This document shows, in pieces, positions 12,734-20,996 of a stretch of DNA of 64,000 bases; the stretch's first letter is position 1, and each line of letters opens with the position of its first letter. The stretch lies in the NCBI RefSeq assembly GCF_054482525.1, contig NZ_CM137006.1; one strand, given 5' to 3'. A program made the translations under genes and the position numbers. The notes under the pieces were generated by a model. The model had not been told where the DNA came from and made no database searches. It was given only the letters and a program-made list of their open reading frames with translations.

Positions 12734-13474
12734 ATGCTGCAAAATATTCGAATTGTGCTGGTGGAGACGTCACACACCGGCAATATGGGTTCTGTTGCCC
12801 GTGCCATGAAAACAATGGGATTAACCAATCTGTGGCTGGTTAATCCACTGGTGAAACCTGACTCCCAGGCGATTGCCCTGGCAGCAGGGGCCAGCGATGT
12901 GATTGGTAATGCTCATATCGTCGATACGCTCGACGAAGCGTTAGCCGGTTGTAGCCTGGTGGTGGGCACCAGCGCACGCTCCCGCACGCTGCCGTGGCCG
13001 ATGCTCGACCCGCGCGAATGCGGTCTGAAAAGCGTCGCTGAAGCGGCAAATACCCCGGTGGCGCTGGTTTTTGGTCGCGAGCGCGTCGGCTTGACCAATG
13101 AAGAGTTGCAGAAATGCCATTATCATGTCGCGATTGCCGCTAACCCGGAATACAGTTCGCTGAACCTGGCGATGGCGGTTCAGGTTATTGCCTATGAAGT
13201 GCGCATGGCCTGGCTTGCAACTCAGGAAAATGGTGAGCAGGTCGAGCATGAAGAGACGCCGTATCCGCTGGTCGATGATCTGGAGCGTTTTTATGGTCAT
13301 CTGGAACAAACGCTGCTGGCAACCGGTTTTATCCGTGAAAACCATCCGGGGCAGGTGATGAATAAATTGCGTCGTCTGTTTACCCGTGCGCGCCCGGAAA
13401 GCCAGGAATTGAATATCCTGCGCGGGATTCTGGCTTCTATAGAGCAGCAGAATAAAGGTAATAAGGCCGAATAA
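12734..13474 (+). CDS. trmJ: tRNA (cytidine/uridine-2'-O)-methyltransferase (SpoU family)
   Basis: 246 aa; SpoU-type sequence. Confidence 0.85.
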
Positions 13475-13477
13475 TAG

Positions 13478-13572
13478 TGGTTGCCTGATGCGACGCTTAA
13501 CGCGTCTTATCAGGCCTGCAGTGCACAGAGCCTCAGGTCGGATAAGGCGTTCACGTCGCATCCGACAACAGG
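13478..13572. repeat. REP/BIME repeat cluster
   Basis: Tandem imperfect palindromes gcctgatgcgacgc…gcgtcttatcaggcc and cggataaggcgttcacgtcgcatccg. Confidence 0.7.
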
Positions 13573-13619
13573 TACAAACGCCACGATAAAAAAATGGCAC
13601 TGAAGGTTAAATACCCGAC

Positions 13620-13743
13620 TAAATCAGTCAAGTAAATAGTTGACCAATTTACTCGGGAATGTCAGACTTGACCCTGCTATGCAATACCCCCACTTTTACA
13701 ATAAAAAACCCCGGGCAGGGGCGAGTTTGAGGTGAAGTAAGAC
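13620..13743 (+). promoter_or_regulatory. iscR promoter with IscR autoregulatory binding sites
   Basis: aaatagttgaccaatttactcgggaatg… resembles known IscR type-1 sites upstream of iscR. Confidence 0.55.
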
Positions 13744-14232
13744 ATGAGACTGACATCTAAAGGGCGCTATGCCGTGACCGCAATGCTTGACGTTGCGCTC
13801 AACTCTGAAGCGGGCCCGGTACCGTTGGCTGATATTTCCGAACGTCAGGGAATTTCCCTTTCTTATCTGGAACAACTGTTTTCCCGTCTGCGTAAAAATG
13901 GTCTGGTTTCCAGCGTACGTGGACCAGGCGGTGGTTATCTGTTAGGCAAAGATGCCAGCAGCATCGCCGTTGGCGAAGTGATTAGCGCCGTTGACGAATC
14001 TGTAGATGCCACCCGTTGTCAGGGTAAAGGCGGCTGCCAGGGCGGCGATAAATGCCTGACCCACGCGCTGTGGCGTGATTTGAGCGACCGTCTCACCGGT
14101 TTTCTCAACAACATTACTTTAGGCGAACTGGTTAATAACCAGGAAGTGCTGGATGTGTCTGGTCGTCAGCATACTCACGACGCGCCACGCACCCGCACAC
14201 AAGACGCGATCGATGTTAAGTTACGCGCTTAA
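13744..14232 (+). CDS. iscR: Fe-S cluster regulator IscR (Rrf2 family)
   Basis: 162 aa; Rrf2 HTH; Cys cluster C..C…C. Confidence 0.9.
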
Positions 14233-14244
14233 TTTAACCGTCCT

Positions 14245-14375
14245 GTTTCGTGTTGCATCTGCGTTGACTGCACATACTCACTCCGGTCACTTACTTATGT
14301 AAGCTCCCGGAGATTCGTAAGTTTGTCAACTTGCTGAAACCCGAAACAGTTAGGTTAAAGATAACAAGATATTAG
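14245..14375. repeat. ERIC/IRU-like intergenic repeat
   Basis: Reverse complement of cactccggtcacttacttatgtaagctcccggagattc closely matches the ERIC core (…GGAGCTTACATAAGTAAGTGAC…) as I recall it. Confidence 0.55.
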
Positions 14376-14472
14376 AATCAGGCCGGAGTGTTTAGCGCTC
14401 CGTAAACACGGTCGTACATCCAGCCGGTAGCCTGGTTCCTTGCATTGAGTGATGTACGGAGTTTATAGAGCA

Positions 14473-15687
14473 ATGAAATTACCGATTTATCTCGACTACT
14501 CCGCAACCACGCCGGTGGACCCGCGTGTTGCCGAGAAAATGATGCAGTTTATGACGATGGACGGAACCTTTGGTAACCCGGCCTCCCGTTCTCACCGTTT
14601 CGGCTGGCAGGCTGAAGAAGCGGTTGATATCGCCCGTAATCAGATTGCAGATCTGGTCGGCGCTGACCCGCGTGAAATCGTCTTTACCTCTGGTGCAACC
14701 GAATCTGACAACTTGGCGATCAAAGGTGCAGCCAACTTTTATCAGAAAAAAGGCAAGCACATTATCACCAGTAAAACCGAACACAAAGCGGTACTGGATA
14801 CCTGCCGTCAGCTGGAGCGCGAAGGTTTCGAAGTCACCTACCTGGCACCGCAGCGTAACGGCATTATCGACCTGAAAGAACTTGAAGCAGCGATGCGTGA
14901 CGACACCATCCTCGTTTCTATCATGCACGTGAACAACGAAATCGGCGTGGTGCAGGATATCGCGGCTATCGGCGAAATGTGCCGTGCTCGCGGCATTATC
15001 TATCACGTTGATGCAACCCAGAGCGTGGGCAAACTGCCTATCGACCTGAGCCAGTTGAAAGTTGACCTGATGTCATTCTCCGGTCACAAAATCTATGGCC
15101 CGAAAGGTATCGGTGCGCTGTATGTGCGCCGTAAACCGCGCGTACGCATCGAAGCGCAAATGCACGGCGGCGGTCACGAGCGCGGTATGCGTTCCGGCAC
15201 TCTGCCTGTTCACCAGATCGTCGGTATGGGCGAAGCCTATCGCATCGCAAAAGAAGAGATGGCGACCGAGATGGAACGTCTGCGCGGCCTGCGTAACCGT
15301 CTGTGGAACGGCATCAAAGATATCGAAGAAGTTTACCTGAACGGTGACCTGGAACACGGTGCGCCGAACATTCTCAACGTCAGCTTCAACTACGTTGAAG
15401 GTGAGTCGCTGATTATGGCGCTGAAAGACCTCGCGGTTTCTTCAGGTTCCGCCTGTACGTCAGCAAGCCTCGAACCGTCCTACGTGCTGCGCGCGCTGGG
15501 GCTGAACGACGAGCTGGCACATAGCTCTATCCGTTTCTCTTTAGGTCGTTTTACTACTGAAGAAGAGATCGACTACACCATCGAGTTAGTTCGTAAATCC
15601 ATCGGTCGTCTGCGTGACCTTTCTCCGCTGTGGGAAATGTACAAGCAGGGCGTGGATCTGAACAGCATCGAATGGGCTCATCATTAA
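14473..15687 (+). CDS. iscS: Cysteine desulfurase
   Basis: ORF 14449..15687; start at [14 protein letters not shown]; PLP-lysine motif [12 protein letters not shown]. Confidence 0.9.
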
Positions 15688-19267: not shown

Positions 19268-19468
19268 ATGGGACTTAAGTGGACCGATAGCCGCGAAATT
19301 GGCGAAGCACTGTACGATGCGTATCCCGATCTTGATCCGAAAACGGTTCGATTCACCGATATGCATCAGTGGATTTGCGATCTGGAAGATTTCGACGACG
19401 ACCCGCAGGCATCTAACGAAAAAATCCTCGAAGCGATTTTGTTAGTCTGGCTTGACGAAGCCGAGTGA
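19268..19468 (+). CDS. iscX: Fe-S assembly protein IscX
   Basis: 66 aa acidic protein immediately after fdx. Confidence 0.85.
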
Positions 19469-19712
19469 TTTCCGCGTCATGCTTCACGCCGCAGATGCGT
19501 TGGCTGCGCTCGTTCACCCCAGTCACATAGTTATCTATGCTCCTGGGGCTTCACTCACTTGCCGCGTGATTCGGCCTTTTGGCCTCACCCCTCCGGGGCC
19601 AGCGCAAGCGCTGTTCAAAACGCAATGCGTTTTGTCCTGCAACGCGAATCATTTAGCGGAAAAATCCTGGGGCTGCCAACTGGCGGCCCTTTTACAAAGA
19701 AGGATAACTAGA

Positions 19713-20996
19713 ATGACAGAAGCGATGAAGATTACCCTCTCTACCCAACCTGCCGACGCGCGCTGGGGAGAAAAAGCGACTTACAGCATTAATAATGATG
19801 GCATTACCCTGCATTTGAACGGGACAGACGATCTGGGGCTGATCCAGCGTGCGGCGCGCAAGATTGACGGTCTGGGCATCAAGCATGTTCAGTTAAGCGG
19901 TGAAGACTGGGATGCGGATCGCTGCTGGGCATTCTGGCAAGGTTACAAAGCCCCGAAAGGCACACGTAAAGTGGAGTGGCCGGATCTGGACGATGCCCAG
20001 CGCCAGGAACTGGATAACCGCCTGATGATCATCGACTGGGTGCGTGACACCATTAACGCACCGGCGGAAGAGTTGGGGCCATCGCAACTGGCACAGCGTG
20101 CTGTTGATCTGATCAGCAACGTCGCAGGCGATCGTGTGACTTATCGGATCACCAAAGGTGAAGATCTGCGTGATCAAGGTTATATGGGGCTGCACACGGT
20201 CGGGCGCGGTTCAGAACGTTCCCCGGTATTGCTGGCGCTGGATTACAACCCAACAGGCGATAAAGAAGCGCCAGTGTACGCGTGCCTGGTTGGTAAAGGC
20301 ATCACCTTTGATTCCGGCGGCTACAGTATCAAACAGACCGCATTTATGGACTCGATGAAGTCGGACATGGGCGGCGCGGCAACGGTTACCGGAGCGCTGG
20401 CGTTTGCCATTACGCGCGGACTGAACAAGCGCGTGAAGCTGTTCCTCTGCTGTGCGGATAACCTGATCAGCGGCAACGCGTTCAAACTGGGCGATATTAT
20501 TACCTATCGCAACGGTAAAAAAGTTGAAGTGATGAACACTGATGCGGAAGGGCGTCTGGTGCTGGCCGATGGCCTGATTGATGCCAGTGCGCAGAAACCG
20601 GAACTGATCATTGATGCGGCGACCCTCACCGGGGCGGCGAAAACTGCGCTGGGTAATGATTATCACGCGCTGTTCAGTTTTGACGATGCGCTTGCCGGTC
20701 GCTTGCTGGCGAGTGCCGCGCAGGAGAATGAACCGTTCTGGCGTCTGCCGCTGGCGGAGTTCCACCGCAGCCAGCTGCCGTCTAACTTTGCCGAACTGAA
20801 CAATACCGGAAGCGCGGCGTACCCGGCAGGTGCGAGCACGGCGGCGGGCTTCCTGTCGCACTTTGTTGAGAACTATCAGCAAGGCTGGCTGCATATCGAC
20901 TGCTCGGCGACTTACCGTAAAGCGCCGGTTGAACAGTGGTCTGCGGGTGCTACGGGACTTGGTGTGCGCACGATTGCTAATCTGTTAACGGCGTAA
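19713..20996 (+). CDS. pepB: Peptidase B (M17 leucyl aminopeptidase family)
   Basis: ORF 19452..20996; start at MTEAMKITL (427 aa); M17 motif NTDAEGRL. Confidence 0.85.

Follow-up and report, generated by a model that had tools for sequence, protein, structure and literature searches.

The spacer between iscR and iscS is a textbook case of small-RNA control, in which RyhB splits the polycistronic mRNA and IscR persists while iscSUA is degraded. We asked what the extra DNA is that lengthens this spacer in the 64,000-nucleotide stretch analyzed here (the window), how it came to lie there, and whether it is likely to matter for isc expression. The window is Escherichia coli DNA, and positions 14133-14573 are 100% identical to strain PCN033. 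An earlier reading made from the letters alone (the sequence-only reading) had put the spacer at about 240 bp and had described an ERIC-like repeat inserted in it. The estimate was accurate, as the spacer spans 240 bp here (14233-14472) and 111 bp in K-12 MG1655. The iscRSUA genes form one transcript, and RyhB triggers loss of its iscSUA part; iscR accumulates after RyhB-induced cleavage owing to a strong structure in the spacer between iscR and iscS (PMC12533949). The features of the locus are as follows, where filled alleles are those with the extra DNA and empty alleles those without it.

13744-14232, plus strand: iscR coding sequence, with its TAA stop codon at 14230-14232 (open-reading-frame list and RefSeq annotation of the 100%-identical PCN033 locus).
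14233-14359, plus strand: ERIC (IRU/RU-1), 127 bp (consensus alignment, profile-HMM envelope and end-to-end alignment with eight other ERICs).
14233-14257, plus strand: left terminal inverted-repeat arm, which pairs with 14335-14359 (repeat search, folds and family consensus hairpin).
14234-14362, no strand: block found only in filled alleles, 129 bp (alignments with K-12, O157:H7, 536 and other empty alleles).
14281-14294 and 14299-14312: arms of the central palindrome, 14 nt (repeat search).
14286-14307, minus strand: ERIC core, an exact match to GGAGCTTACATAAGTAAGTGAC (one match, none expected).
14335-14359, plus strand: right terminal inverted-repeat arm, partner of 14233-14257 (repeat search, fold and consensus hairpin).
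14362-14471, plus strand: iscRS 'iscR stability element' (Rfam RF01517), full length, 120 bits.
14365, 14370, 14371 and 14373, plus strand: four substitutions fixed between filled and empty alleles (six of each), in the 5' tail of the stability element.
14473-15687, plus strand: iscS coding sequence, beginning with ATG at 14473 (open-reading-frame list and RefSeq annotation of the PCN033 locus).

The identification as an ERIC held up on formal comparison. The core that the sequence-only reading had quoted from the family consensus is present at all 22 of its positions and occurs once. Shuffled sequence produced no match to it in 100 shuffles, even with three mismatches allowed, and the reading as a chance palindrome was rejected. 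The 22 nucleotides correspond to invariant columns of the family alignment. The imperfect palindrome that had also been described is real, and consists of 25-nt terminal arms that are 80% complementary together with the 14-nt central arms. As a reference we used Wilson and Sharp's consensus for E. coli ERICs (127 nt), in the form given by Delihas 2007 (PMC2759123). Local alignment to this consensus gave 85 identities over 112 positions (76%) and a score of 85, compared with 16 ± 2.3 (maximum 30) for 500 shuffles and 18 for the opposite strand. We also built a profile HMM from eight other ERIC sequences, leaving out the iscR-iscS copy. The profile matched 14235-14357 (envelope 14233-14359) with 92.4 bits and E = 7.7e-28, covering model positions 3-125 of 127. 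Alignment with the consensus, which had been proposed as a check, thus came out in favor of an ERIC.

In a nine-sequence alignment, the element aligned end to end with the E. coli cusC-cusF, aceF-lpdA and pgk-fbaA copies and with copies from Salmonella, Pantoea, Klebsiella aerogenes and Cedecea. From TTTAACC to GGTTAAA it measures exactly 127 bp, and these seven-base termini form a perfect inverted repeat. The plus strand carries the published consensus string and the open reading frame, and the classic Hulton core reads on the minus strand. Like other members of the family, the iscR-iscS copy combines the 127-bp length, the exact core, a 7-bp terminal inverted repeat and a compensated long hairpin; it sits between co-transcribed genes and shows filled/empty site polymorphism. 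Its location is likewise that of an ERIC, being intergenic, between iscR and iscS within the iscRSUA operon. The family is dispersed: E. coli genomes have a median of 7 places that match, with 60-80% identity to the copy studied here. What sets this copy apart is that it is only 70-78% identical to every other copy found, and that its termini read TTTAACC/GGTTAAA instead of the TATACCC/GGGTATA of the family, with no clear TA target duplication. The closest likeness at the ends is the livJ-proximal ERIC of K. aerogenes (LR134124.1), which has the same junction, TAA followed by TTTAACC, and the same termini (TTTAACC...GGTTAAA). In contrast to its ends, that copy is only about 72% identical overall, and therefore it is not a source copy. 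Together, these results show that 14233-14359 is a member of the ERIC/IRU/RU-1 family by every feature that can be tested except the TA ends. The family itself is reportedly the subject of Sharples & Lloyd 1990, Hulton et al. 1991 and Wilson & Sharp 2006. In the literature searched we found no mention of an ERIC at the iscR-iscS locus, and the novelty is limited to this undescribed locus and to a divergent, single-locus ERIC subtype.

The boundaries required some correction. The sequence-only reading had placed the repeat at 14245-14375; an element is indeed present there, but the ERIC occupies 14233-14359, and the insertion-deletion difference from empty alleles occupies 14234-14362. The last ~15 nt of the earlier range belong to the iscRS stability element and not to the ERIC. 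Its description of the site as the isc operon leader did not stand either, since the region lies between two cistrons within the iscRSUA transcript. With AT present at both 14232-33 and 14361-62, the edges of the 129-bp difference can be shifted 2 nt leftward. The insertion point is therefore 0-1 nt past the iscR stop codon and immediately 5' of the iscRS stability element, with boundaries of ± 2 nt, so that the ERIC lies exactly between the stop codon and RF01517.

Canonical ERICs are reported to have 5'-TA-3' at each end and to duplicate a TA target site (PMC2759123). The ends of the iscR-iscS ERIC read TT...AA, and the AT described above is the sole exact repeat at the junction. A TA duplication would require the assumption of one substitution. 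We tried TA, AT, TTAA and an AAGATA repeat as target-site duplications at this junction, and none was convincing. Termini other than TA are also found in the K. aerogenes copy.

We then compared the spacer across E. coli. Matches were obtained in 5,424 complete E. coli genomes, and 490 of these (~9%) have the filled site. The remaining genomes match in two pieces that lie 129 bp closer together, which separates 441-bp from 312-bp matches. With a 50-nt query for the empty junction, empty sites were detected in at least 4,908 E. coli genomes. K-12, O157:H7 and the B2 strain 536 are among the empty ones, and they lack exactly 129 bp, as do most others; the comparison with reference strains thus favors the reading as an insert. 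Filled genomes include PCN033-like strains, O139:H1, ETEC from pigs, isolates from dog, horse and cattle, and human isolates.

To see how filled and empty alleles are related, we aligned six filled and six empty alleles over the region from iscR through iscS. The six filled alleles have identical inserts, yet they carry at least four different iscS haplotypes that differ by up to 20 sites. Every filled allele is nearer to some empty allele than to other filled ones. Thus, the filled UTAK-8, CP53 and 13E0780 are 4-5 iscS sites from empty K-12 and 19-20 from the filled window, and filled O139:H1 is four sites from empty N3. Across the insert and 13 further nucleotides there were no segregating sites in 143 positions, compared with 3.3 expected from the flanks, where 2.3% of sites segregate (P ~0.04, a rough estimate). 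Because the insert is identical yet filled alleles do not cluster on their flanks, these data point to one origin of the filled allele, which would then have spread between lineages by short recombination tracts.

Two further features of this alignment were noted. The loop of the first hairpin of the stability element, at 14387-14397, is hypervariable, with at least four haplotypes among the 12 alleles that are common to filled and empty alleles. The stem around it is kept by paired changes (GGAGUG...CGCUCC and GGGGCG...CGCUCC). In TB06052, iscS has an 18-bp in-frame duplication just past its start (~1415-1432 of that locus), and the annotated IscS is six residues longer.

We next considered where the copy came from. 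No source copy with more than 80% identity was found in E. coli genomes (distant search), plasmids or phages; the sole 100% match labeled as a plasmid is a 1.4-Mb record that carries iscR itself. A 30-nt variant of the core, searched against GTDB species representatives (one genome per species), matched only an unrelated metR-metE ERIC in Cedecea neteri. A 27-nt arm searched against metagenomes matched two contigs only, both from the same E. coli iscR-iscS locus. The substitutions at 14365, 14370, 14371 and 14373 bear on the same question. An empty site with the filled-type flank was found neither in the 4,908 E. coli genomes (best 92% identity) nor in metagenomes. The four linked changes may have arrived as part of the inserted DNA, may belong to a foreign flank imported along with it, or may have arisen later as compensation.

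One account of these observations is that the ERIC was not transposed in place, and that homologous recombination brought it in, along with ~11 nt of its right flank, from a relative that has not been sampled and already had the element. Such an import is possible, although we would not expect it. It would explain why 4 of the 11 flank positions are unlike every empty E. coli allele, and it is consistent with the lack of a source copy in E. coli and with recombination that demonstrably moves the filled allele between backgrounds. However, the left (iscR) side shows no linked differences, and neither species representatives nor metagenomes contain a donor.

We then examined the structure that the ERIC adds to the spacer. 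The ERIC RNA alone folds at -45.8 kcal/mol (z = -5.35, none of 200 shuffles as good), and its complementary strand at -54.6 kcal/mol. The RNAalifold consensus of the nine ERICs is a single long hairpin of 35 pairs, 19 of which show compensatory double changes. The iscR-iscS copy adds several compensatory pairs of its own, for example CTCCGG/CCGGAG in place of the consensus CCCCAG/CTGGGG. When the untranslated spacer was folded, the ERIC hairpin branched off separately (mean pair probability 0.89), and the core helix of the stability element had a probability of 0.99, compared with 0.98-0.99 in empty alleles. Deletion of the ERIC in silico left the predicted fold of the remaining spacer unchanged. 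Folds that included 100 nt of coding sequence on each side produced long-range pairings with variable probabilities (the core helix fell to 0.49 in filled D6), and we gave them little weight because the flanks are translated. These results predict that the ERIC hairpin is structurally independent of the stability element and of the iscS start region where RyhB acts.

The neighboring elements are largely retained. RF01517 matches 14362-14471 over model positions 1-110 of 110 with 120 bits, far above its gathering score of 40; the corresponding scores are 138 bits in K-12, 128 in O157:H7 and 118 in filled D6. The four linked substitutions lower the score by 8-18 bits and leave 2 of the 5 outer-helix pairs non-canonical. 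It is thus not strictly true that the neighbor is untouched. Because the outer helix has a predicted probability of about zero even in K-12, its weakening in filled alleles is not interpretable in thermodynamic terms. Positions 14398-14549, which include the iscS start region, are the same as in K-12 except for 14435, a site that is also polymorphic among empty alleles. The stability element, reportedly the subject of Desnoyers et al. 2009, resembles the ERIC in being a structured RNA of the same spacer, and its full length is retained here. It differs in being non-repeated, and the ERIC has been added on its upstream side and is no variant of RF01517.

We found no promoter-like or terminator-like site in 14233-14472, and because this spacer lies inside the iscRSUA transcript, the ERIC is probably co-transcribed in the isc mRNA. 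It would form its own long hairpin there as a separate branch, and the stability element and the iscS start region, on which RyhB acts, would keep their sequence and predicted fold. We therefore consider it likely that this is a full-length ERIC with presence/absence polymorphism, carried as a co-transcribed, self-contained passenger beside retained regulatory elements. It would be mainly a passenger, and its effect on isc expression is probably modest. Apart from its interesting regulatory position, the insert is an ordinary small-mobile-repeat polymorphism. In roughly one in eleven sequenced E. coli, a hairpin of -46 kcal/mol from a mobile element sits precisely where the stop codon of iscR would otherwise adjoin the structure that protects iscR. 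In practical terms, ERIC-PCR patterns and assumptions about spacer length vary by strain at iscR-iscS.

Work on Yersinia offers the most likely route by which such a copy would act, if it acts at all. In Yersinia, transcript levels of a gene fall when an ERIC lies at its 3' end, since the 3' inverted repeat then exposes a site for RNase E, in a manner that depends on orientation and on ribosomes (PMC10969869, PMC2229807, PMC3184786). The stop-adjacent ERICs of Yersinia enterocolitica (De Gregorio et al. 2005, as described in these reviews) are like the iscR-iscS copy in abutting the upstream stop and in being co-transcribed. They differ in the sequence of the right arm, and in that the iscR ERIC is followed by a dedicated stability element and not by plain spacer. 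We compared orientations. ERICs that lie 0-6 nt past a stop codon (iscR, iscX, cusC, a Pantoea DUF1471 gene and K. aerogenes livJ) share one orientation in 5 of 5 cases, and those 60-170 nt from a stop (aceF-lpdA and pgk-fbaA) have the opposite orientation in 2 of 2, a small sample. The iscR-iscS ERIC has the orientation of the other stop-adjacent copies examined. The Yersinia ERIC paper of De Gregorio et al. 2005 is said to contain the same orientation rule for stop-adjacent copies. By this analogy we infer that the iscR-iscS copy belongs to the destabilizing Yersinia class, and an effect of the ERIC on iscR mRNA stability is possible.

If the ERIC does act in this manner, the iscR stop codon would be central to the mechanism. 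Because the base of the hairpin begins 1 nt past this codon, a terminating ribosome would have to open it. Ribosomes terminating at 14230-14232 would hold the base open, the right arm at 14335-14359 would become single-stranded and open to attack by RNase E, and the upstream iscR portion of the mRNA would become less abundant relative to iscSUA. The ERIC would then be a working regulatory allele in which RNase E cleaves between iscR and the stability element, cuts iscR off from its 3' protection and lowers IscR relative to IscSUA, notably when iron is scarce. We regard this as a tentative possibility. The Yersinia reviews together with the orientation rule in the five stop-adjacent copies are in line with it, as are the placement of the hairpin base, which a terminating ribosome would open, the monomorphic filled allele on several haplotypes, and the four linked changes in the adjoining stability element. 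Several observations weigh on the other side. The class assignment by orientation is itself inferred, and the filled allele is rare (9%). IscR represses its own promoter, which would buffer changes in its mRNA. In addition, the AU-rich stretch of the consensus right arm, GAATTATTTT, reads GAAACAGTTA in the iscR-iscS copy, and because of this change the RNase E site may not be conserved. Whatever its effect, the natural filled allele offers a ready test of the modularity of RNA elements, and of whether the mRNA destabilization described for Yersinia ERICs holds in E. coli.

The hairpin could also work in the opposite direction. As an additional barrier to 3'-to-5' exonucleases, in the manner of REP sequences, it would support the stability element, and iscR mRNA would become more abundant or longer-lived. 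The great stability of the hairpin and its place right after the stop codon would suit this role, and the natural element beside it works by strong secondary structure (PMC12533949). We nevertheless consider a barrier function unlikely: the ERIC lies upstream of a barrier that is already sufficient, and would therefore rarely be at the 3' end, and Yersinia ERICs in the same orientation lowered, and did not raise, the upstream transcripts. REP/BIME and the Correia (NEMIS) elements of Neisseria resemble the ERIC in being small palindromic intergenic repeats that form mRNA hairpins able to affect stability or processing, and differ in belonging to other sequence families and size classes.

A stronger version of the regulatory reading would treat the ERIC and the four linked substitutions as a selected regulatory haplotype that alters the IscR:IscSUA ratio through an RNase E-sensitive module placed between iscR and the stability element. 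This is a speculative proposal that we think unlikely. If it were true, short-tract recombination would be spreading the haplotype among lineages of E. coli, many of which come from livestock and companion animals.

The history of the site could in principle be reversed, with the ERIC ancestral between iscR and iscS and precisely deleted in most E. coli. The lack of a source copy in any collection searched is compatible with a loss polymorphism, and the divergence of this copy from other ERICs (70-78%) is like that of old copies. We consider loss very unlikely, since the filled allele is the minority (9%) and its insert is without polymorphism while the flanks carry 2.3% segregating sites. Empty alleles also fit the Rfam model from position 1, directly past the stop codon, and the core 30-mer is absent from GTDB species representatives except at the unrelated Cedecea locus.

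It is highly improbable that the insert serves as a transcription terminator or promoter, encodes a small RNA of its own, or extends IscR by read-through. In favor of such readings, Rfam small-RNA families have sub-threshold matches overlapping the ERIC, and the conserved ERIC reading frame is in frame with iscR behind a single TAA. Against them, 13600-14600 contains neither a U-tract terminator nor a sigma-70-like promoter, the Rfam matches reach only ~21 bits against thresholds of 93-96, and the TAA is followed by U, a context in which termination is strong. The ERIC hairpin is followed by GAUAACAAGAUAUUAG, and does not have the combination of a GC-rich hairpin and a U tract that defines an intrinsic terminator. 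The ERIC frame runs through 14230-14337 past the TAA (...DVKLRA*FNRPVSCCICVDCTYSLRSLTYVSSRRFVSLSTC*), such that read-through would add 34 residues; the in-frame arrangement behind iscR is probably a coincidence. A 49-aa open reading frame at 14153-14302 is a mechanical one over the end of iscR and the ERIC, and we do not consider it a gene. The Rfam small-RNA matches were to V_AS5 (RF02818, full model length) at 14237-14359 and to CssrA (RF02798) at 14188-14287, both on the minus strand, which suggests that these two small-RNA families were built on ERIC-like sequence.

The window contains a second ERIC at 19469-19662, directly past the iscX stop (19468) and upstream of pepB. This copy has the same orientation as the one behind iscR and is split by an internal insert of ~69 bp (19566-19634). 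The iscX-pepB locus is length-polymorphic in E. coli, and positions 19400-19760 of the window match in classes of 361, 294 and ~175 bp. The isc-hsc-fdx-iscX cluster is thus bracketed here by two directly oriented ERICs ~5.2 kb apart.

Repeats of another kind occur upstream of iscR. The trmJ-iscR spacer has REP/BIME-like units at 13450-13599 with sub-threshold matches to the Rfam family naRNA4. These REP-derived matches are found only at 13450-13599 and none falls in the iscR-iscS spacer, so the insert there is not a REP/BIME. The trmJ-iscR spacer varies in length between strains, with 269 nt in the window and in D6, 300 in O157 and UTAK-8, 360 in CP53 and TB06052, and 451 in K-12, where it contains two naRNA4 units above threshold.
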